This document shows, in pieces, positions 4,168-43,215 of a DNA stretch of 64,000 nt. The DNA is from Bdellovibrionales bacterium (GTDB lineage: Bacteria > Bdellovibrionota > Bdellovibrionia > Bdellovibrionales > UBA1609). The translations under genes were made by a program, and so were the position numbers. The notes under the pieces are model-generated. The model was not told where the DNA came from. It did not search any database and saw only the letters and a program-made list of their open reading frames with translations. The DNA is taken from assembly GCA_965205945.1 (NCBI GenBank), contig CBDBIB010000003.1, positions 64,001-128,000 on the forward strand. The letters are read 5' to 3'. Each line of letters begins with the position of its first letter. The first letter of the stretch is position 1.

Positions 4168-5676
4168 ATGATACTAACAAATTTATTATGGTCGCCGATT
4201 TTTTTTATTCTTCTGCTTCTCTTTTTTAAAAAAGATCATTACTTAAAAGTATTAGGATTTAGTTTGTCAGTAATGCATTTTTTTTATGGAGTTTTTATTT
4301 GTACTAGATTTGAGATTGAAAATAAAAACTACCAGATGATCGAGCTGGCAAGCATTTTTAAGCCTTTAGGGATGCACTATAGTTTAGGTGTAGATGGATT
4401 AAGTCTTTTATTGATTATGTTCTCACTTTTTATGATGCCCTTAATTATATTAGGCACATGGAATTTTATGGGGATTAGAGTAAAATCTTATTTTATAAAC
4501 TTATTTGCTTTACAAATTTGCATGATTGGAATTCTTCTTTCATTAGATTTAATTTTATTTTATATGTTTTTTGAATTAAGTTTAATTCCAATATTTTTAT
4601 TAATGGGAATGTATGGTGGAAAGAAAAATTTTTCTGCAGCAAAAATATTTTTTCTCTTTATTTTTGTAAGTTCAATTTTTCTAATGGGCTCGATTGTTAC
4701 GATGATGGTTTTATTTGAATCTGTGAACGGAGTTATAAGTTCTTTAATAATAGATCTTCAAACTATTCAATTACCATTTGTAAAAAATACGGTTTTTTCA
4801 ACACAAACCGTTTTATTTTCAGGATTTTTCATAGCTTTTGCAGTAAGAGCAGCGCTTTTTCCACTGCATACTTGGCTACCAAATACTCACGTTAAAACCT
4901 CAACAGGGGGGTCTATTGTTTTAGAAATCTTGATGTTAAATATTGGGGCTTATGGGATGATTAGATTTTTAAGCTTGTACTTTCCACAAGCAAGCTCACA
5001 GTATGCTTGGGTGGTTTGTATATTAGCAATTATAGGGATTATTTATAGTGCTATGATCACTTTTTCTCAAACAGATATGAAGAGGTTTGTGGCATATTTG
5101 TCTGTTTTTCATATGGGATATATAGTTTTAGGTATTTTTTGTTGGGATACGGTTTCTTATAAGGGAGTTTTGTTTCAAATGTTGAGTCGTGGATTAAGTA
5201 CAGGGGGATTGTTTTTAATGATTGGAATGCTTTATGAAAGATTTAAAACAAGGCAAATAAAAGATTTTGGAGGGTTGGTAAAAACTATGCCAAACTTTAC
5301 TATTTATTTTTTATTGATTTCTCTTACAAGTATGGCAGTGCCGTTAACAAATGGTTTTATAGGGAATTTTTTAATTCTTTTTGGAGTATTTGCTACAAAT
5401 AAATATTATGGAATCTTTGCAGTTTTTGGAATATGTTTAATAGCAGGGTCTATGTCAAATATGATTAGAAAGGTTTTTTTTGGTGCTCTATCAGACAAAT
5501 TTAGTCATTTAAGTGATGTTGATTTGTCAAAAAGAGAAATGTTTGTACTCACTCCCATAGTGATTTTAATTTTTTTAATGGGGATTTATCCTAAAAGTAT
5601 TACAAGTTTTTTAACTAAGAGTAATCAAGAGATAGAAAGTCTACAGGTGAGAGGGGATGATTATGTTATTCAATAG
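4168..5676 (+). CDS. nuoM: NADH-quinone oxidoreductase subunit M (key residues substituted)
   Basis: LGVDGLSL, FYMFFELSLIP, FPLHTWLP, QTDMKRFVAY and GMLYER motifs. Confidence 0.9.
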   Translation: MILTNLLWSPIFFILLLLFFKKDHYLKVLGFSLSVMHFFYGVFICTRFEIENKNYQMIELASIFKPLGMHYSLGVDGLSLLLIMFSLFMMPLIILGTWNFMGIRVKSYFINLFALQICMIGILLSLDLILFYMFFELSLIPIFLLMGMYGGKKNFSAAKIFFLFIFVSSIFLMGSIVTMMVLFESVNGVISSLIIDLQTIQLPFVKNTVFSTQTVLFSGFFIAFAVRAALFPLHTWLPNTHVKTSTGGSIVLEILMLNIGAYGMIRFLSLYFPQASSQYAWVVCILAIIGIIYSAMITFSQTDMKRFVAYLSVFHMGYIVLGIFCWDTVSYKGVLFQMLSRGLSTGGLFLMIGMLYERFKTRQIKDFGGLVKTMPNFTIYFLLISLTSMAVPLTNGFIGNFLILFGVFATNKYYGIFAVFGICLIAGSMSNMIRKVFFGALSDKFSHLSDVDLSKREMFVLTPIVILIFLMGIYPKSITSFLTKSNQEIESLQVRGDDYVIQ

Positions 5677-33649: not shown

Positions 33650-34138
33650 TGCTAAAAAACTTTAAATCTTAACTAAAGTTTCATAAGGACCCTTCTTCTT
33701 TAGCTTTATCGTCACTAATAAAGACGCTTAAAAAACAATAAACTCTCTGCCGCTAGCTCTGATTTATTCTTACTTAAATCCCAGGCCTTCTTAAACCTTC
33801 TTCTGGCATCCATCATACACCCAAACCTTAGAGCTAAATCTTTTTCAATCTGGTTACAATAAGAATGCTCATCTGCTTATAAAACTCCAGTATAACCCCC
33901 TAAAAGCCTCTCACCCCAGGACTTCTCTTTTTTTCTCCTAAAACTTCAACCCTAGTTTCATCAATTCCTATATAATCTTCATCAAACATTCGCTCTTCTA
34001 AAACATTATAAAGAGGCATCAGTTTTCTAGAAATATTTATCAGCCAACTTGCTATCACTCCTCTTTTTAATGTGATCCCATAAAGTTTATACAGATCTTC
34101 TAGCCTATAAAGTGGAAGATGCTGAAAGTATTTACTAA
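33650..34138 (-). pseudogene. IS66-family TnpC transposase remnant, truncated by IS982
   Basis: SKYFQHLPLYR and IDETRVEVL. In a shifted frame: GYTGVL*ADEHS and FGCMMDARRRF (cf. GCWAHARRKF). Left boundary approximate. Confidence 0.75.
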
Positions 34139-35159
34139 ACCCGAGTTCGGACTTTTCCAAGAATCTAAGTATAAATAAAAGATCACCTTAAGCCTTTTGT
34201 AAGATGTAGTTTTTTTTTAATCTGATCTGAAAAAAGGAGCTGGGAATGATTAAAGAGAACCAAATTATAGAGATTTTTACTCTTGTTGACGATTTTATTT
34301 TAGGACTAAATTACGAGCAGCGCAAACTCACACCCGGCAAAAGGAAGAGGGAGTTTTCCCCCTGCGTTATCTGAATCTAAAGTTATCACAATTTGTTTGT
34401 TATTCCAGTTTTCTGGTTTTAGAAATTTTAAAGCTTTTTATATAGGCTATGTTTTAAAATTTCTAAAACCTTATTTCCCAAAACTCTTGTCCTATAATAG
34501 GTTTGTAGAACTTAAAAAATATTGAGCACCTTAACTCTTTATTTTCCTAAACTCACTCATGGAATCAAATTACAGGAATATCTATTCTAGACTCAAGCCC
34601 CGTGAGTGTTTGTAACAACAAAAGAATCAGTCGCCATAAAACCTTTAAGGGGCTTTGAAAACGTAAAAAATTAACAATGGGCTGGTTCTCTTTAGTTTTA
34701 AAGTTCATATCATTATTTCTCATAAAGAAGAGCTCCTAAACTTCACTATGACCCCAGGAAACGTCCATGATACAAAACCTTTAGAGAATCTTACAGATGG
34801 TTTGTTTGGAAAGCTTTTTGGAGATAAGGGGTATATCTTAAAAGAACCTCTTTAAAAAAAACTTATGGCTAAAGGTGTTTAAGTTAATTACTAATTTAAA
34901 ATCAAATATGAAAAATAAGTTTGTACCACTTTTTGATAAACTTTTACTGAGAAAAAGATATATTGTTAAGACTGTTTTAGGAATTTTAAAGGAAGAGTTT
35001 CACATTGAACACTCTTAACATCAAAGTCTTAAAAAACTTTATAGTGAATCTTTTATCAGCATTAACTGCATATTGTCTGCGTCCTTTTAAACCAGCAATA
35101 CGTGCTTAAACCCATGAAAATAGAGTGTTAAACCAGATTTAAAAAGTCCCAACTCGGGT
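34139..35159 (+). mobile_element. IS982-family element with inactivated transposase
   Basis: Terminal IRs ACCCGAGTTCGGACTTTT (34139) and reverse complement ACCCGAGTTGGGACTTTT (ends 35159), 17/18 match, ~1.02 kb. Fragments EIFTLVDDF, FPKLLSYNRFVEL, LFGDKGY and LLRKRYIV are broken by stops and frameshifts. Confidence 0.88.
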
Positions 35160-35183
35160 TATATAAGAAACAGCTTCTAAAAG

Positions 35184-35310
35184 AACTTAACTCTTGTTAA
35201 TGGCGACTTAACTACACATGTTACTAATATGAGCCATATGCATTGAGTAATGCAGCTTTAACAACCCCCTAACATCTCTGGTTGGAATACTTTTAAAGTT
35301 ATTAATATGG
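35184..35310 (+). pseudogene. Degenerate relic of a DUF285/BspA-like repeat segment paralogous to ~41962-42085
   Basis: aacttaactcttgttaatgg...acatgttactaatatgagc...atgcagcttta...tgg aligns by eye to the start of the repeat array in the giant gene. Confidence 0.75.
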
Positions 35311-35329
35311 ATGGTGTACTTTTACAAAA

Positions 35330-35357
35330 CATGCCGATAAGGAGGATTATGTTACTA
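35330..35357 (+). other. dif-like XerC/XerD site (left)
   Basis: catgccgATAA-ggagga-TTATGTTActa has the 11-6-11 layout of E. coli dif GGTGCGCATAA-TGTATA-TTATGTTAAAT. Confidence 0.7.
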
Positions 35358-35870
35358 CGTCTGCTTTTAACCACATTATATTTAAGTTTGAAAAGCTGAT
35401 TTTAATTATAAAAGTGCTTAGACTGTAAATTTCTTTATAAAATTATTATGTTTCAATAATAATTACGTTTATTATTAACAAGATAAGGACTGCTTTAGAA
35501 TAATTACTCTATAAAAATATTTAATATTTAAAATATTCTTTTTTAATATCGCTTTAGATATTAAATAATCTTTATATTATACATATGCTGTTATTTTAAC
35601 CAGCATCTAAGTTTAAAAGCTTATTAAGATAACAGCATATGTATTATATAAAGATATTTAAATCTAATATTTAAAAAGCGAATATTAAATATTAAGTTTT
35701 TTTTAAAGTATTTATTTGTATAGCAGTCCTTATTATTTAAATAAGAAAATCTTGTTAATTGAAACGTAACTAATTTTGCAACATTTTTATGTTATAAAGA
35801 AATTTACACTTAAGCACCATAGTTAAAATCAGCAGGTCAAACTCAAAAATAATGTGGTTTTAAGCAGAAA

Positions 35871-35898
35871 TAGTAACATAATCCTCCTTATCGGCATC
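35871..35898 (-). other. dif-like XerC/XerD site (right, inverted)
   Basis: Minus strand gatgccgATAA-ggagga-TTATGTTActa; 8/11 identity to each E. coli dif arm; same 6-bp spacer as the left site. Confidence 0.7.
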
Positions 35899-36003
35899 TC
35901 ATACAAAAGCACAGATTTTAAATGAAAATAAAAATGTAGAATTAGAGCTAAAAAACTATTTAATTCCCTCTAATTGTTAAGCTTTTCATCCGAAATATAC
36001 AAT

Positions 36004-39000
36004 ATGTATAGAGTATATGACTTATTAAAAAATTTCATAGAAATAAGTGTGAAAGCTCTAACTTTCTTCACAATTTTACTATTAACTCCCCATTCTCTAG
36101 CCACCCCAAGTTCTTTTGTTTTTCAAGGCCAAATTGTAAAACCCAATGGAGACGCTTTAGAAGAAAATAATGTCAGCTTTCTTGTTCAAGTTTTATCCTC
36201 CATGGATCATTGTCTTCTTTACGAAGAAAGTTTTAATCTTAATATGATAGGATCAAAGGGAGTTTTTAACTTAAACGTTGGGTCTGGAATAAACACAGGA
36301 AATGGAGGCTTAACAAATTTATCTAAAGCTTTAGACAATTCTTTTTTAAACAATAAAAGTCTTAGTTGTGCCTTTGGGTCTTCATACACTCCAACCTTAA
36401 ACGATACAAGAAGGCTTAGAGTAACTTTTGATCATGGCAGCGGCCCTCTTACTTTAACAAATGATCATATAATTCACAGTGTGCCCTATGCTCAGTATGC
36501 CGGCAAACTTGGTGGAAAAGCTGTTAATGATTTTATTCAAGTAAGTCGTGGTGTTACTCAAAGCAATTTAGAGACCGTGTTTGATAATGATGCCAATCAA
36601 AGAGAGCTTATGGCTTTAATTAATGGCAGCTCTAATCAATACTCCCCATTAAGCATCAGTGGAGCTAGCTCTTTACCGAGTTTTTCAAGCTCTCATCCAC
36701 CACCTAATTCTCAGGCAGGAGATATTTGGTATAACTCTACAAATAATCAAATCATGTACTACAATGGATCAGCAGCCACTGTTGTTGGTAAAGGTAGTGG
36801 AACTGTAACCAGTATTACAGCAGGAAGTGGCTTAAGTGGTGGAACCATTACAAACAGTGGTACAATTTTAATTGCACCAGGGGGTGTTTTAAACAGTCAT
36901 CTTGCAAGTGGTATTCATGCAAATAAAATCACAAGTGGAATTCTACCAAGCTCAGTGGTTCCCACAGGAACTGACAATACAAAACTTCCTCTTACAGGAG
37001 GGGTTTTATTAGGTGACCTTAATCTTAATAATAATCAGATTCTAAACACAAGTCATATTATGCAAAACCCAGGAAGTACCATGACCTTAGGTTCTTATAC
37101 GAATTTAGAAGAAGTTAGTCTTTTAGGATCTATGAACATGAGCAATGCTGGGGCTACTTGGTACAATAGTGACTCTGGAGCGCTTAAGTATTGGAATGGT
37201 GTTAGCTTAGAAGTTTTAAGCACCTTAAGTAGTGCATCAAGTGTTTTAGTCAATGCTCCTTTAACCTCTTCAGGTGGTAGCAACCCAACAATAAGCATCA
37301 ACCTTGGTAGGGGTTTATACAACAACAGTGGAAACATAGATTTAGATTTAGATTCTTCTGGGGGTTTAGAGTTTAATATAAATAAATTAAAAGTAAAAGT
37401 AGGAAGTGGTTTAAAAATTACGCCAAGGGGTTTAGAAGCAGATATAGGAAGTGGTTTAGGACAGCTCATGCAAGTGGACACTCTTCCTGTGTGTACTAGT
37501 GGGGAAAAGATTCAACGAAACCCTGGTGCTATAATAAGCTATTCTTGCGTGGCTGATATTGATACAGACACAGACACAAGTCTTTTAGGAAGCCAGGCTC
37601 AAGGGGATCTTACAGGAACCTACCCAAACCCTAGTCTTACACCAACGGGTGTAACCCAAGGGGCGTACCCAAAAGTTAGAGTTGATGTTAAAGGAAGAGT
37701 GGTTGAGGGTTTAAGTTTATTAAAATCTGATATACCAGATTTAAATGGAGAAAAGATCACTTCAGGAACCATTAGCACAGCTAGATTAGATGTTGGCACA
37801 GGGAGCAATCAGCTTATTAAGCTTGATAGCTCTTTAAGACTGCCTGCTGTTGATGGAAGTCGGCTTATAAACTTACCAAGTAGTGCTGATAATATGGGAG
37901 ATAGCGTAGCTCGATTAAATATAAATCTTAACCAAAATTATTTAAGTGGAGACGGTGATAATGAGGGAATTATTATTGATGCTAGTGGAAGGGTTGGAGT
38001 TGGTAAGGCTAGTCCTGAGGCTTTATTAGACGTTGCTGGAACAGCAAGAATAACACAAATTTGTGATGAAAGAGGAGCAAATTGTAAGGATGTGTCTGAA
38101 GGTTGGAGTTTAGCAAGTCTGGCGGCAAACACGGTGACCTACACTCCATTTGGAAACATTCAGGCTACAGATGTAGAAGGTGCACTTAATGAACTTGAAT
38201 CTAGAAAAGCTCCAATAACTAGAACTATTAGAACGGCTTTAAACAGTGGATTAAGTGGAGGTGGAGATTTATCGACTAATAGAAGTTTAAGTGTAGACAT
38301 TAACAAAACTACAGAAAAAACTACGGCTGATTCTTTAGACAGTGTTTTAATATATGATGTTTCTCAAAGTAGTCTTAAAAAAATAACACATTCAAACTTT
38401 TTAAACGGTTATTTAAAAGCTTCTTTAGGAAAAAGTCGAGGCAACGCAATGGATGCTGGTGGGGTGCCTAGTTGTGAAAGCAATGAAAAACTTCAAATGA
38501 GTAATGGCCCTATTTATTCCTGGTCATGTGAAGTTGATCAAAACACAAGTCTTTTAGGAAGCCAGGCTCAAGGGGATCTTACAGGAACCTACCCAAACCC
38601 TAGTCTTATACCAACGGGTGTAACCCCAGGGACGTACTCAAAAGTTAGAGTTGATGTTAAAGGAAGAGTGGTTGAGAGTTTAAGTTTATCAGAAAATGAT
38701 ATACCAGATTTAAATGGAGAAAAAATCACTTCAGGAACCATTAGCACAGCTAGATTAGATGTTGGCACAGGGAGCAATCAGCTTATTAAGCTTGATAGCT
38801 CTTTAAGACTGCCTGCTGTTGATGGAAGTCGGCTTATAAACTTACCAAGCAGTGCTGATAATATGGGAGATGGTATAGCTCGATTAAATATAAGTCTTAA
38901 CCAAAATTATTTAAGTGGAGACGGTGATAATGAGGGAATTATTATTGATGCTAGTGGAAGGGTTGGGGTTGGTAAGGCTAGTCCTGAGGCTTTATTAGAC

Positions 39001-42000
39001 GTTGCTGGAACAGCAAGAATAACACAAATTTGTGATGAAAGAGGAGCAAATTGTAAGGATGTGTCTGAAGGTTGGAGTTTAGCAAGTCTGGCGGCAAACA
39101 CAGTGACCTACACTCCATTTGGAAACATTCAGGCTACAGATGTAGAAGGTGCACTTAATGAACTTGAATCTAGAAAAGCTCCAATAACTAGAACTATTAC
39201 AACGGCTTTAAACAGTGGATTAAGTGGAGGTGGAGATTTATCAACTAATAGAAGTTTAAGTGTAGACATTAACAAAACTACAGAAAAAACTACGGCTGAT
39301 TCTTTAGACAGTGTTTTAATGTATGATGTTTCTCAAAGTAGTCTTAAAAAAATAACACATTCAAACTTTTTAAACGGTTATTTAAAAGCTTCTTTAGGAA
39401 AAAGTCGAGGCAACGCAATGGATGCTGGTGGGGTGCCTAGTTGTGAAAGCAATGAAAAACTTCAAATGAGTAACGGCCCTATTTATTCCTGGTCATGTGA
39501 AGTTGATCAAAACACAAGTCTTTTAGGAAGCCAGGCTCAAGGGGATCTTACAGGAACCTACCCGAACCCTAGTCTTATACCAACGGGTGTAACCCCAGGG
39601 ACGTACCCAAAAGTTAGAGTTGATGTTAAAGGAAGAGTGGTTGAGGGTTTAAGTTTATTAAAATCTGATATACCAGATTTAAATGGAGAAAAGATCACTT
39701 CAGGAACCATTAGCACAGCTAGATTAGATGTTGGCACAGGGAGTAATCAGCTTATTAAGCTTGATAGCTCTTTAAGACTGCCTGCTGTTGATGGAAGTCG
39801 GCTTATAAACTTACCAAGCAGTGCTGATAATATGGGAGATGGTATAGCTCGATTAAATATAAATCTTAACCAAAATTATTTAAGTGGAGACGGTGATAAT
39901 GAGGGAATTATTATTGATGCTAATGGAAGGGTTGGAGTTGGTAAGGCTAGTCCTGAGGCTTTATTAGACGTTGCTGGAACAGCAAGAATAACACAAATTT
40001 GTGATGAAAGAGGAGCAAATTGTAAGGATGTGTCTGAAGGTTGGAGTTTAGCAAGTCTGGCGGCAAACACGGTGACCTACACTCCATTTGGAAACATTCA
40101 GGCTACAGATGTAGAAGGTGCACTTAATGAACTTGAATCTAGAAAAGCTCCAATAACTAGAACTATTAGAACGGCTTTAAACAGTGGATTAAGTGGAGGC
40201 GGAGATTTATCAACTAATAGAAGTTTAAGTGTAGACATTAACAAAACTACAGAAAAAACTACGGCTGATTCTTTAGACAGTGTTTTAATGTATGATGTTT
40301 CTCAAAGTGGTCTTAAAAAAATAACACATTCAAACTTTTTAAACGGTTATTTAAAAGCTTCTTTAGGCACAAGTCGAGGCAACGCAATGGATGCTGGTGG
40401 GGTGCCTAATTGTGAAAGCAATGAAAAACTTCAAATGAGTGAAGGTCCTATTTATTTATGGTCATGTGTGACAGACACAAGTCTTTTAGGAAGCCAGGCT
40501 CAAGGGGATCTTACAGGAACCTACCCGAACCCTAGTCTTATACCAACGGGTGTAACCCAAGGGACGTACCCAAAAGTTAGAGTTGATGTTAAAGGAAGAG
40601 TGGTTGAGGGTTTAAGTTTATTAAAATCTGATATACCAGATTTAAATGGAGAAAAGATCACTTCAGGAACCATTAGCACAGCTAGATTAGATGTTGGCAC
40701 AGGGAGCAATCAGCTTATTAAGCTTGATAGCTCTTTAAGACTGCCTGCTGTTGATGGAAGTCGGCTTATAAACTTACCAAGCAGTGCTGATAATATGGGA
40801 GATGGCAGGGCTCGATTAAATATAAATCTTAACCAAAATTATTTAAGTGGAGACGGCGATGATGAAGGAATCACTATTAACAATAATGGTGATGTTTCTG
40901 TCTCTGGAAGCATTTCTACTCCAGGATCTATTAGTACATCTACTGTTACATTTTTAAAAAAAGTTGGAACAGTTACAACCCCTTGTGACAGTTTAACTGA
41001 GGGTACTTTAAGGTATAATTCTTTAGGAAAAAAACTGGAGTTTTGCGATGGGGTAGTGTGGAAAACTTTTTTAAGTAACAATGATCCAACAATTTCTATT
41101 ACAAACTCTTTAAGTGGATCTTACATTAATTCTATTAATGAGGGGGGTTTTAGGGTTTTAGGAACATGTTCTGAAGATGGTGAGCTTATCACATTTTCAC
41201 ATGGTACAAGCTTTATTACTTGTTCTAATAAAAGCTTTAGTGGTGATATTGATTTTTCAAGCCTAAGTGATGGTCCACTTTCACTAACTGCTAGTATCAC
41301 AAACATTGCTGGAAATTCTAAAACTTCAGGTGTTTTAAATCTAATAAAAGATACTAAACCCCCTATTGTCAGTATTGGAAGCCATATAATAAGCAGTTCA
41401 AATTCTATAGACTTTCCCATAACTGTAAGCCAAGACTTTAGTAGTATAAACCTAGAAAAGAGCAATGTCAGCCTTACTGGAGCTACTACAGGTTGCACAG
41501 TTTTAGTAACAAATGGAACAACTATTAATCCAAGTATTAGGATTTCAGACTGCAGTGATGAAACCGGAAATATTCAAATTACAATCGCCTCTGGTGTTGC
41601 ACAAGATGCAGCCGGAAACCTGTCTGATGTAGTTAGTTTAAGCACTGAAATACAAAATTTAGGAACCCCTTTTACAGCTAAATTTAGTATTTATGGTAGT
41701 GATTTAAATTTAAATCTTAGGTTAAATTCTTCTTATACATATAACTTTATGGTTCATTGGGGGGATGGAACCTCGGGAGTTGTTACTTCATCAAGTGATT
41801 TAGATAAAAATCATACTTATTCATCTTCAGGGACTTATATAGTTAAAATCACTGGGCGCTGCCCATATCTTAACTTTCGTGATAGCGAGCAAATAATTGA
41901 GGTTACAGAATTAGGAGACACAGGGTGGGAAAGTTTTAGTCATATGTTTTATAAAGCAGATAACTTAACTCTTGTTAATGGTGGCTCAACTAGACATGTT

Positions 42001-43215
42001 ACTAATATGAGCTTGATGTTTTATGATGCAGCTTTAGCTAACCCTGACACCTCTAACTGGGACACTTCTAAGGTTACTAGTATGAGCTGGATGTTTTTTA
42101 GTGCAGATTTAGCTAACCCTGACACCTCTGACTGGGACACTTCTAAGGTTACTAATATGAACGGGATGTTTTATGGTGCAGATTTAGCTAACCCTGACAC
42201 CTCTGACTGGGACACTTCTAAGGTTACTAGTATGAGCTCTATGTTTTATAATGCAGATTTAGCTAACCCTGACACCTCTGACTGGGACACTTCTAAGGTT
42301 ACTAGTATGAGCTCTATGTTTAATAATGCAGCTTTAGCTAACCCTGACACCTCTGACTGGGACACTTCTAAGGTTACTGATATGAGGTCTATGTTTAATA
42401 ATGCAGATTTAGCTAACCCTGACACCTCTGACTGGGACACTTCTAAGGTTACTGATATGAGCTCTATGTTTTTAAGTGCAGCTTTAGCTAACCCTGACAC
42501 CTCTAACTGGGACACTTCTAAGGTTACTGATATGAACTGGATGTTTTCTGATGCAGATTTAGCTAACCCTGACACCTCTAACTGGGACACTTCTAAGGTT
42601 ACTGATATGAGCTCTATGTTTTTAAGTGCAGCTTTAGCTAACCCTGACACCTCTGACTGGGACACTTCTAAGGTTACTAATATGAACGGGATGTTTTCTT
42701 ATGCAGCTTTAGCTAACCCTGACACCTCTGACTGGGACACTTCTAAGGTTACTAGTATGAGCTCTATGTTTTATAATGCAGATTTAGCTAACCCTGACAC
42801 CTCTGACTGGGACACTTCTAAGGTTATTTATATGAACTCTATGTTTTATAATGCAGATTTAGCTAACCCTGACACCTCTAACTGGGACACTTCTAAGGTT
42901 ATTTATATGAACTCTATGTTTTATAATGCAGATTTAGCTAACCCTGACACCTCTAACTGGGACACTTCTAAGGTTACTAATATGAGCTTGATGTTTTATG
43001 ATGCAGATTTAGCTAACCCTGACACCTCTGACTGGGACACTTCTAAGGTTACTGATATGGGGAGTATGTTTAATAATGCAGCTTCTTTTGATCAAGACAT
43101 CAGTTCATGGAATGTTTCTAACGTTCTCGATTGCGGCAGTTTTTCAAGCCGAACTTTAACTTCTTGGACTCGTGCTGAAAAACCTAATTTTACACGTTGT
43201 AGCCCTGGTTATTAA
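36004..43215 (+). CDS. Giant (~2400 aa) secreted fibre/adhesin-like protein: Bdellovibrio-type fibre N-domain, ~3.4 x 323-aa repeats, Ig/PKD-like domains, DUF285 (BspA-like) repeats
   Basis: Signal peptide; FVFQGQIVKPNG...CLLYEE N-domain; phage-fibre-like GDLTGTYPNPSL and GRVGVGKASPEALLDVAG motifs; WGDG PKD motif; WDTSKVTxMxxMF repeats. Start uncertain (35974 TTG, 36004 ATG or 36049 GTG). Confidence 0.85.
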   Translation: MYRVYDLLKNFIEISVKALTFFTILLLTPHSLATPSSFVFQGQIVKPNGDALEENNVSFLVQVLSSMDHCLLYEESFNLNMIGSKGVFNLNVGSGINTGNGGLTNLSKALDNSFLNNKSLSCAFGSSYTPTLNDTRRLRVTFDHGSGPLTLTNDHIIHSVPYAQYAGKLGGKAVNDFIQVSRGVTQSNLETVFDNDANQRELMALINGSSNQYSPLSISGASSLPSFSSSHPPPNSQAGDIWYNSTNNQIMYYNGSAATVVGKGSGTVTSITAGSGLSGGTITNSGTILIAPGGVLNSHLASGIHANKITSGILPSSVVPTGTDNTKLPLTGGVLLGDLNLNNNQILNTSHIMQNPGSTMTLGSYTNLEEVSLLGSMNMSNAGATWYNSDSGALKYWNGVSLEVLSTLSSASSVLVNAPLTSSGGSNPTISINLGRGLYNNSGNIDLDLDSSGGLEFNINKLKVKVGSGLKITPRGLEADIGSGLGQLMQVDTLPVCTSGEKIQRNPGAIISYSCVADIDTDTDTSLLGSQAQGDLTGTYPNPSLTPTGVTQGAYPKVRVDVKGRVVEGLSLLKSDIPDLNGEKITSGTISTARLDVGTGSNQLIKLDSSLRLPAVDGSRLINLPSSADNMGDSVARLNINLNQNYLSGDGDNEGIIIDASGRVGVGKASPEALLDVAGTARITQICDERGANCKDVSEGWSLASLAANTVTYTPFGNIQATDVEGALNELESRKAPITRTIRTALNSGLSGGGDLSTNRSLSVDINKTTEKTTADSLDSVLIYDVSQSSLKKITHSNFLNGYLKASLGKSRGNAMDAGGVPSCESNEKLQMSNGPIYSWSCEVDQNTSLLGSQAQGDLTGTYPNPSLIPTGVTPGTYSKVRVDVKGRVVESLSLSENDIPDLNGEKITSGTISTARLDVGTGSNQLIKLDSSLRLPAVDGSRLINLPSSADNMGDGIARLNISLNQNYLSGDGDNEGIIIDASGRVGVGKASPEALLDVAGTARITQICDERGANCKDVSEGWSLASLAANTVTYTPFGNIQATDVEGALNELESRKAPITRTITTALNSGLSGGGDLSTNRSLSVDINKTTEKTTADSLDSVLMYDVSQSSLKKITHSNFLNGYLKASLGKSRGNAMDAGGVPSCESNEKLQMSNGPIYSWSCEVDQNTSLLGSQAQGDLTGTYPNPSLIPTGVTPGTYPKVRVDVKGRVVEGLSLLKSDIPDLNGEKITSGTISTARLDVGTGSNQLIKLDSSLRLPAVDGSRLINLPSSADNMGDGIARLNINLNQNYLSGDGDNEGIIIDANGRVGVGKASPEALLDVAGTARITQICDERGANCKDVSEGWSLASLAANTVTYTPFGNIQATDVEGALNELESRKAPITRTIRTALNSGLSGGGDLSTNRSLSVDINKTTEKTTADSLDSVLMYDVSQSGLKKITHSNFLNGYLKASLGTSRGNAMDAGGVPNCESNEKLQMSEGPIYLWSCVTDTSLLGSQAQGDLTGTYPNPSLIPTGVTQGTYPKVRVDVKGRVVEGLSLLKSDIPDLNGEKITSGTISTARLDVGTGSNQLIKLDSSLRLPAVDGSRLINLPSSADNMGDGRARLNINLNQNYLSGDGDDEGITINNNGDVSVSGSISTPGSISTSTVTFLKKVGTVTTPCDSLTEGTLRYNSLGKKLEFCDGVVWKTFLSNNDPTISITNSLSGSYINSINEGGFRVLGTCSEDGELITFSHGTSFITCSNKSFSGDIDFSSLSDGPLSLTASITNIAGNSKTSGVLNLIKDTKPPIVSIGSHIISSSNSIDFPITVSQDFSSINLEKSNVSLTGATTGCTVLVTNGTTINPSIRISDCSDETGNIQITIASGVAQDAAGNLSDVVSLSTEIQNLGTPFTAKFSIYGSDLNLNLRLNSSYTYNFMVHWGDGTSGVVTSSSDLDKNHTYSSSGTYIVKITGRCPYLNFRDSEQIIEVTELGDTGWESFSHMFYKADNLTLVNGGSTRHVTNMSLMFYDAALANPDTSNWDTSKVTSMSWMFFSADLANPDTSDWDTSKVTNMNGMFYGADLANPDTSDWDTSKVTSMSSMFYNADLANPDTSDWDTSKVTSMSSMFNNAALANPDTSDWDTSKVTDMRSMFNNADLANPDTSDWDTSKVTDMSSMFLSAALANPDTSNWDTSKVTDMNWMFSDADLANPDTSNWDTSKVTDMSSMFLSAALANPDTSDWDTSKVTNMNGMFSYAALANPDTSDWDTSKVTSMSSMFYNADLANPDTSDWDTSKVIYMNSMFYNADLANPDTSNWDTSKVIYMNSMFYNADLANPDTSNWDTSKVTNMSLMFYDADLANPDTSDWDTSKVTDMGSMFNNAASFDQDISSWNVSNVLDCGSFSSRTLTSWTRAEKPNFTRCSPGY
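37574..40870 (+). repeat. Intragenic tandem repeat of ~969-bp units (starts 37574, 38543, 39512, 40475; last unit partial)
   Basis: acacaagtcttttaggaagccagg recurs at spacings of 969, 969 and 963 bp with near-identical intervening sequence. Confidence 0.97.
42001..43083 (+). repeat. 75-bp (25-aa) DUF285-type tandem array, 14 full units plus a partial unit
   Basis: ttagctaaccctgacacctct(a/g)actgggacacttctaaggtta recurs every 75 bp from 42001 to 43050. Confidence 0.97.

Follow-up and report, generated by a model that had tools for sequence, protein, structure and literature searches.

A candidate family of invertible segments with dif-like ends upstream of giant fibre genes in a Bdellovibrionales bacterium

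A quasi-palindromic segment located upstream of a giant fibre gene in a Bdellovibrionales bacterium probably belongs to a family of invertible switches (invertons) that would be driven by XerC and XerD. The segment lies in a 64,000-nucleotide stretch of DNA, here called the window, which is C3:64001–128000 of a 1.87-Mb genome in five contigs (G000). Eight full copies of the element and one truncated copy are present in this genome, and every one is found upstream of a giant fibre paralogue.

Both ends of the quasi-palindrome (window positions 35330–35898) are perfect inverted 27-mers, with exact matches at 35331–35357 on the + strand and at 35871–35897 on the − strand (expected number 0 in 100 shuffles). 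A repeat search located inverted-repeat arms of 95 nt that are 83% complementary (35315–35409 and 35819–35913), and more arm pairs follow inward to the center. A 611-nt stretch folds as a single long hairpin with a DNA MFE of −148.2 kcal/mol, which corresponds to z = −18.3 and was matched by 0 of 20 shuffles, and as RNA the same stretch yields z values of −28.2 for the + strand and −24.2 for the − strand. The ORF listing of the window includes no frame of at least 40 aa inside the palindrome. Repeat search, folding, and ORF listing together confirm the first-pass annotation, which described a non-coding palindrome of ~570 bp. That annotation also took the terminal 27 bp to be the only long perfect stretch. 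They are indeed the longest, but a perfect central stem of 16 nt is present too, as is the side palindrome that had been noticed at 35733–35744. A search of the whole window with Rfam at gathering thresholds returned three tRNAs only, and the palindrome had no match. The segment and its neighbors are divided as follows:

35184..35329, + strand: distal flank D, a degraded DUF285-repeat coding fragment with two in-frame stops; present at 6 of 8 loci
35330..35357, + strand: distal dif-like site, with an XerC-type arm (35330–35340), the spacer GGAGGA (35341–35346), and an XerD-type arm facing inward (35347–35357)
35358..35614, unstranded: distal arm of the putative invertible segment, an outlier that is B-related, yet 75–81% identical to both arm types
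35615..35870, unstranded: proximal arm, type A, 92–95% identical to the A arms of the other seven full copies
35871..35898, − strand: proximal dif-like site, which has the same spacer as the distal site and is its inverted counterpart
35899..36048, + strand: fixed proximal flank from the switch to the gene start, near-identical at 9 of 9 loci regardless of segment orientation
36049..43215, + strand: gene for a giant secreted fibre-like protein, with GTG 36049 as probable start and the signal peptide MKALTFFTILLLTPHSLA

The last 15 nt of flank D (35315–35329) form the outer extension of the inverted repeat, and positions 35899–35913 form its counterpart on the proximal side. Flank D matches residues 1997–2037 of the giant protein (blastx E = 5e-8) and shows 75–80% nucleotide matches to the DUF285 regions of the paralogues. 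The window copy is unusually palindromic because its distal arm is an outlier close to both arm types, and this arm is an intermediate, less-decayed form. Within the proximal A arm, the first ~135 nt are conserved in a sister species (G003). By eye, the SD-like spacer and an ATG can be read into the segment from the site, where inward frames run for 13–16 aa in arm A and for 6–16 aa or more in arm B. These small inward ORFs were considered as a type I toxin or small protein and were rejected, given that the frame length varies between copies and that the SD-like spacer is absent in G003.

The G003 orthologues begin with ATG, and homology with that start was used to assign GTG 36049 as the probable start of the fibre gene. 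An alternative start is ATG 36004, and the frame is open from position 35974. The C-terminal part of the protein is composed of DUF285 repeats (Pfam E = 5.4e-110). Nine paralogous giant fibre genes are carried by the genome, all of them open frames (1241–2813 aa; one runs off a contig end), and their first 1700 nt differ from one another at 0–22 positions. The distance from the site to the GTG is 150 nt and is constant at 9 of 9 loci.

Comparison of the copies points to inversion. The 27-mer occurs 17 times in the genome as eight pairs and one lone site. Fourteen of these are perfect, and three carry one A>G change in the spacer. A search allowing up to four mismatches found no further 27-mer in G000 outside the 17 fibre-locus sites. 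Each full copy is a non-coding segment of 510–567 bp. When each copy was split at its middle and all arms were compared, two types were found: Type A arms are 92–100% identical among themselves and type B arms 98–100%, whereas A and B share only 61–66% identity. At three of the eight full loci (the window, C2:62k, and C2:176k), the arm that adjoins the gene is A, and at the other five it is B. All eight copies align end to end after being oriented from A to B. Outside the sites, the sequence stays put, with the proximal flank conserved at 9 of 9 loci and distal flank D at 6 of 8. The copies therefore have what is expected of an inverton, namely segments bounded by inverted repeats (eight pairs in the genome) and, across paralogous loci, both orientations between fixed flanks. 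These comparisons indicate that the segment is inverted relative to the gene among the copies.

Orientation also is scattered on a tree of the first 1700 nt of the fibre genes, although support values are modest (0.69–0.91) and gene conversion may blur this tree. For example, the gene at the B-proximal locus C2:116k and that at the truncated, A-proximal copy C1:289k have 0 differences over their first 1700 nt. Since the evidence on orientation is drawn from paralogous loci, it may record past events. An exact scan for the 27-mer returned 0 matches in genome_contigs and metagenome_contigs, and therefore no conspecific locus in the opposite orientation was found there. The 27-mer also was found 0 times in 40 relatives.

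The ends of the segment resemble the chromosomal dif site of the same genome. A motif search located a single-copy dif at C1:58571–58598, which reads AATGCTGATAA GGTATA TTATGTTACAA and which coincides with the cumulative G−C maximum of contig C1 (60–62 kb). The dif core was found in 29 of 40 relatives, mostly once per genome, compared with 2 hits for a reversed-pattern control. The switch site, NATGCCGATAA GGAGGA TTATGTTACTA, has the same 11-6-11 layout and matches the dif of its own genome at 19 of 22 arm positions and at 3 of 6 spacer positions. The first-pass annotation had parsed the ends as dif-like sites with identical spacers and inward XerD-type arms, and had proposed that they be compared with the dif at the GC-skew terminus. 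The parsing holds, and the comparison reveals that the arms match whereas the spacer is private to the switch. The ends are, in sequence, true dif mimics. Because they match the host dif so closely, Xer recombinases are the likely actors.

A search of 201 genomes of the order with a spacer-free pattern derived from the site arms picked out G003, which belongs to the same genus and whose dif is identical over 34 nt. G003 carries two pairs of inverted sites with the spacer TATGGA. Each pair bounds a segment of 528 bp and lies ~100 nt upstream of a fibre orthologue (75% identity over 200 aa). The segment is homologous to the G000 element along its length, best in arm A. The two G003 loci provide an independent second example of the same signature. 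Identity of their proximal flanks is 100% over 200 nt. On the distal side, identity is 96% for the 188 nt closest to the sites and 75% when 300 nt are compared. In contrast, the interior is 98.6% identical when compared as the reverse complement versus 61.8% directly, and the two loci cease to be colinear precisely where the inner edge of the sites is reached. Between G000 and G003, the left and right sites have changed together (columns 5 and 11–13), as partner recombination sites must.

Only 2 of the 15 fibre paralogues in G003 carry the switch. The other 13 are without one, and therefore fibres can be expressed without it. Comparison of the switch with the sequences that precede these switch-less paralogues gave no homology beyond the final 20 nt before the gene and two matches of 13–15 nt at chance level.

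A family-level scan of 109 genomes and the scan of 201 genomes of the order revealed further genomes with several sites that share a non-dif spacer. The numbers of private dif-like sites and their agreement with the dif of the same genome are listed below. Outside G000, the putative dif used in this comparison was assigned by its single-copy status and its order-wide spacer type.

G000: 17 sites; 19/22 arm positions as in its own dif
G003: two pairs; 19/22 arm positions as in its own putative dif
G043: 3 sites; 18/22 arm positions as in its own putative dif
G217: 4 sites; 20/22 arm positions as in its own putative dif
G220: 2 sites; 21/22 arm positions as in its own putative dif
G221: 4 sites; 22/22 arm positions as in its own putative dif
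G222: at least 12 sites; 20/22 arm positions as in its own putative dif

In all seven genomes, the private spacer differs from the dif spacer. The outer XerC arm varies between lineages (AATGCT, ATCCCC, TGTTCT).

Another explanation is that the segment is an orphan MITE-like inverted-repeat element that was duplicated passively with the gene and that was flipped by occasional RecA-dependent recombination between the 27–43-bp repeats. The element is non-coding, AT-rich, and ~0.5 kb long with terminal inverted repeats, and IS debris adjoins it, all of which speaks for this explanation. However, every copy is associated with a fibre gene, the ends show no visible target-site duplication, and an IS with such ends was not found. 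The outer flanks are an inverted repeat rather than a direct one. Homology between repeats also leaves unexplained why those repeats copy the arms of the host dif and why private sites and dif covary in seven genomes. A second species has this architecture at the corresponding position, and its spacers have changed together. We consider this explanation quite unlikely.

As candidate enzymes for inversion of the segments, G000 encodes an XerC-like protein (C3:142846–143835; 160 bits to TIGR02224) and an XerD-like protein (C2:242725–243639; 263 bits to TIGR02225), both of which score below the model cut-off. It also has three other tyrosine-recombinase genes or fragments and one serine recombinase of 251 aa. 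In G003, which is 98% complete in 10 contigs, the only two PF00589 proteins are the orthologues of these XerC-like and XerD-like proteins (87–88% identical). G221 and G222 likewise have two PF00589 proteins each. At dif, XerCD normally needs FtsK.

Two other candidate invertases were rejected. The serine recombinase has no orthologue of like size in G003 or G043 (the proteins are 251, 628, and 624 aa and are not orthologous). PD-(D/E)XK "transposase" genes are present in or near the modules of G220, G221, G222, and G043, and proteins of this Rpn/YhgA-like type are multi-copy in three of these genomes (17 matches in G221, 48 in G222, and 14 in G043). They were not found in G000 or G003, where searches for PF02371, PF04754, and PF12784 found none.

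The first-pass annotation had proposed a different role for the palindrome. It was seen as a protein-free mobile element whose single strand folds into a rod, rebuilding a duplex dif site at its foot, and which would integrate or excise by means of the host XerCD in the manner of CTXphi, or alternatively as a rod-like RNA or ssDNA satellite. The window copy taken by itself fits this description, since it folds into a nearly perfect rod whose foot is a complete dif-like duplex, and its sites are good dif mimics. The fold is not maintained, however. The other seven copies reach only −65 to −70 kcal/mol versus −146 kcal/mol for the window copy, and they form 63–92 arm-to-arm pairs versus 221. Of the 230 arm-to-arm pairs of the window copy, 148–152 are kept in other G000 copies and 113–114 in G003, and 41–50 are lost to gaps in the seven other copies. 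Seventy-three of the 230 pairs depart by breaking only. Both sides are changed in just 11, of which 4 are within the sites, and compensatory changes are therefore few. The informative covariation is in the sites themselves. The paired fraction, 80.6% compared with 42%–48% when slid, derives from the common origin of the arms.

The element shows no mobility either. All 17 sites are at a fixed position upstream of one gene family, every paralogue has at least the proximal site, and neither empty sites nor copies in other contexts were found in G000, in 40 relatives, or in two public collections. Integrative elements of the CTXphi type (IMEXs) resemble the present element in that they use host XerC/XerD and dif-like sequences, and in that a folded strand can create the site. 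In contrast to IMEXs, which integrate at dif and have direct flanking sites, the present element has inverted sites, shows no mobility, has no conserved single-strand fold, and is located away from dif. Its eight full loci either are separated from dif by 9 kb to several hundred kb or lie on different contigs. Inverted sites lead to inversion, not excision. With no Rfam family for the element either, a mobile hairpin or satellite is highly improbable.

In the mechanism that we propose for the invertible switch, housekeeping XerC and XerD would bind the dif-like arms. Strand exchange is proposed to invert the segment because both sites share an identical, asymmetric, and private spacer, GGAGGA. 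The different spacer of the true dif (GGTATA) would stop the switches from recombining with the terminus. Inversion would decide which arm, A or B, adjoins the gene. This is expected to link a signal to the gene or to cut it off, the simplest case being a promoter in one arm, such that each fibre gene would go on or off independently. We infer that XerC and XerD are the enzymes, that switching continues, and that orientation controls expression. Seventeen identical sites should also allow rearrangements between loci, which would be costly. Two loci have, in place of flank D, a gene start that is truncated and inverted, and this second start may be the scar of such an event.

Signals that could be switched were sought in the arms. 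Promoter-like hits on two copies numbered 5 and 8, compared with 7.1 ± 2.8 and 7.6 ± 2.7 for the respective shuffles of this AT-rich DNA, and no terminator-like site was found in the two copies scanned. Footprinting of the arms between G000 and G003 revealed conserved blocks in arm A but no convincing −35/−10 pair. No promoter was placed, and the regulatory effect is therefore deduced from the position of the segment alone. The sequence GCCGATAA inside the site, which we liken to a sigma-28 motif, was considered as a promoter and rejected. Its upstream spacing is unfit, and by eye G003 has GCTGATAA instead.

Another scenario that could account for inverted copies is that the element is a decayed remnant of a shufflon-like, cassette-swapping system, in which dif-like sites once located in or near coding sequence exchanged gene ends. 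In this case, the segment may flip without regulating anything. Several observations are consistent with such a history. Flank D is a degraded DUF285 coding fragment whose frame passes through the site into a short inward frame, and the first 12 codons of the inward frame of arm A are similar by eye in G000 and G003. Pilin cassettes of genus g19 likewise have reading frames that run through this ATG in the XerD-type arm. Furthermore, the origin of the palindrome would be explained by a pair of homologous gene starts in inverted orientation that lost the DNA between them. Relics near the element, including IS copies, the degraded DUF285 flank, and truncated gene starts, suggest past rearrangements among the fibre loci, and therefore descent from cassette swapping stays a rival explanation.

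Against decay, maintenance of the sites is perfect, in that 14 of the 17 are identical and the other three differ by a single change each. The arms, whose identity within a type is put at 98%–100% across loci and in both orientations for this comparison, argue for current use rather than decay. Also, the partner common to both species is the downstream gene and not the upstream relic, and by eye the distal flank in G003 has no obvious DUF285 likeness. We regard a decayed shufflon as unlikely.

The private sites of the related genomes also speak for the proposed Xer-driven switch. In G220, G221, and G217, these sites are inside the coding sequence of the prepilin leader (PF07963). Each system contains a single site whose XerC side bears a strong SD, an ATG, and leader codons, whereas its other sites are silent. 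In G043, three pilin start codons overlap sites, and a 640-bp segment is located between two divergent pilin genes with an SD at one end only. It is possible, although we offer this more tentatively than the switch itself, that housekeeping XerC and XerD double as a global invertase of dif-mimic switches in predatory Bdellovibrio-like bacteria. Private spacers would insulate each switch family from dif and would define which sites pair. A single essential pair of enzymes could then drive on/off variation that is combinatorial. The targets would include up to eight giant fibre genes here and, in sister genera, type IV pilin genes whose expression site would be switched by a crossover inside the prepilin leader.

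Phase variation by DNA inversion is well known and normally is carried out by dedicated invertases. The E. coli fimS element is an invertible promoter. The mpl genes of Mycoplasma penetrans reportedly each have their own invertible promoter, and capsule promoters of Bacteroides are said to be inverted by the master invertase Mpi. As in these systems, surface-protein genes here are immediately preceded by a short segment that has an inverted repeat at each end. The same repeat is shared by many loci of one genome, which implies a single enzyme that acts globally. The known systems use dedicated invertases with sites of their own, whereas here the sites mimic dif, and three genomes with such sites (G003, G221, and G222) have no tyrosine recombinase beyond the XerC/XerD pair.

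Xer-type recombination has been linked to inversion in other bacteria. Oppositely oriented pXerC/D (pdif) pairs with an identical 6-bp spacer on Acinetobacter Rep_3 plasmids are reported to undergo reversible inversion (PMC9947245). These modules resemble the present element in being bounded by oppositely oriented XerC/XerD-type sites with identical spacers. Unlike them, the element here is chromosomal, non-coding (no ORF of at least 40 aa), and ~0.5 kb long, and it is always upstream of a fibre gene, at a fixed distance from the start codon of one gene family. The Acinetobacter modules carry genes, whereas the element here gives no sign of moving between contexts and is presumed to be a regulatory switch.

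In Ureaplasma parvum, XerC is reported to mediate inversions at the mba and UU172 loci, which switches surface antigens (PMC3599477). Similarly, Xer-family inversions of surface proteins are described for the vpma locus of Mycoplasma agalactiae (PMC11868660). In Ureaplasma, the putative dif is bound by a different protein, CodV, and phase variation uses repeats distinct from that site (PMC3599477). The arrangement is different here, since the switch sites copy the dif arms and the spacer alone is private.

No description of chromosomal dif-mimic switches or of phase variation in Bdellovibrio-like bacteria was found in literature outside subscription journals, and a term search of the text of a paper on Bdellovibrio fibres found neither "phase varia" nor "promoter" (PMC10769870). 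If XerC and XerD do run the switches, then the dimer-resolution machinery would have a regulatory role on the chromosome, and the switches would be a clear natural case in which spacer identity partitions Xer sites into non-interacting sets. The genes under control would be those for giant surface fibres here and type IV pilins in related genera, which raises the testable question of whether predatory bacteria diversify their prey-contact surface within a clone.

Some features of the surrounding DNA also can be recorded. Left of position 35161 is a degenerate transposase copy (34138–35161) that has intact relatives elsewhere in the genome and that, by the look of the protein, we take to be IS982-like. 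On the − strand, positions 33903–34187 look like a transposase fragment.

Read toward the interior of the segment, the switch's private GGAGGA spacer and the ATG in the XerD-type arm amount to a textbook ribosome-binding site, both at window 35341-35351 and at the partner site. The homologous switch of the same-genus sister species has the spacer TATGGA, which is without the ribosome-binding site seen in the GGAGGA spacer.

Candidate switching systems for type IV pilins are present in three relatives, and dif-like sites also lie among the pilin genes of a member of another family of the order. The features are as follows:

G221:C1:1727813-1748703 (L079/L080), candidate pilin switching locus
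G220:C1:293694-295204 (L078), candidate pilin switching locus
G220:C1:294211-294894 (L078 2559-3626, - strand), PF12784 gene
G217:C11 (L082), candidate pilin switching locus
G043:C8:493000-505000 (L037), dif-like sites at 4204, 6740 and 7412, spacer TATTCA

At the three candidate loci, dif-like sites with private spacers lie within the prepilin leader coding sequence, and each system has one site whose XerC side bears an SD, an ATG and leader codons. Judged by their sequences, these loci look like expression-site switching systems for type IV pilins, in which the remaining pilin genes would be silent cassettes. The 1.5-kb invertible pilin segment of G220 contains a PF12784 (PD-(D/E)XK "transposase") gene, the only full-length gene of this family found in that genome. 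Its product could be an accessory factor, or the gene could be a passenger. In G043, the start codons of three pilin genes overlap dif-like sites, and an SD is present at just one end of the 640-bp segment that separates a divergent pair of pilin genes.

The conserved distal flank of the window switch is a degraded DUF285 repeat, whose frame runs on through the dif-like site into a short inward frame. Transposase remnants occupy the ORF-poor 2.4 kb to the left of the switch. The positions of these remnants and of the flank are:

window 33903-34187, second transposase-like fragment
window 34138-35161, degenerate copy of an IS982-like transposase; the genome contains about a dozen relatives
window 35184-35329, degraded DUF285 repeat

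At two other loci of the source genome (C1:651555-651702 and C3:590450-590554), the distal flank is a truncated and inverted copy of a fibre gene start. These copies may be the scar of recombination that joined switch sites of different loci. The giant fibre gene itself (window 36049-43215) carries near-identical internal repeats of ~969 bp. The nine fibre paralogues share ~99% identity across their first 1.7 kb and differ in length, and two of them differ at the C-terminus.

G222:C1 holds at least 12 dif-like sites with the spacers GCTTAA and GCTTCA (L076, L077, L081, L083). Several are inverted pairs with 2.6-10 kb between partners and XerD arms facing outward. YhgA-like (PF04754) genes lie between paired sites, and small secreted beta-solenoid proteins of one family are encoded next to the sites. 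In two relatives, an inverted pair of sites has the dif-type spacer: at G181:C1:1166852 and 1176554 (9.7 kb between) and at G022:C52:2842 and 2882 (40 bp between). The source genome has one more single dif-like site, AATACTGATAA GTTTTC TTATGCTACAA (C1:423623-423650), which is distant from the terminus and has no partner.
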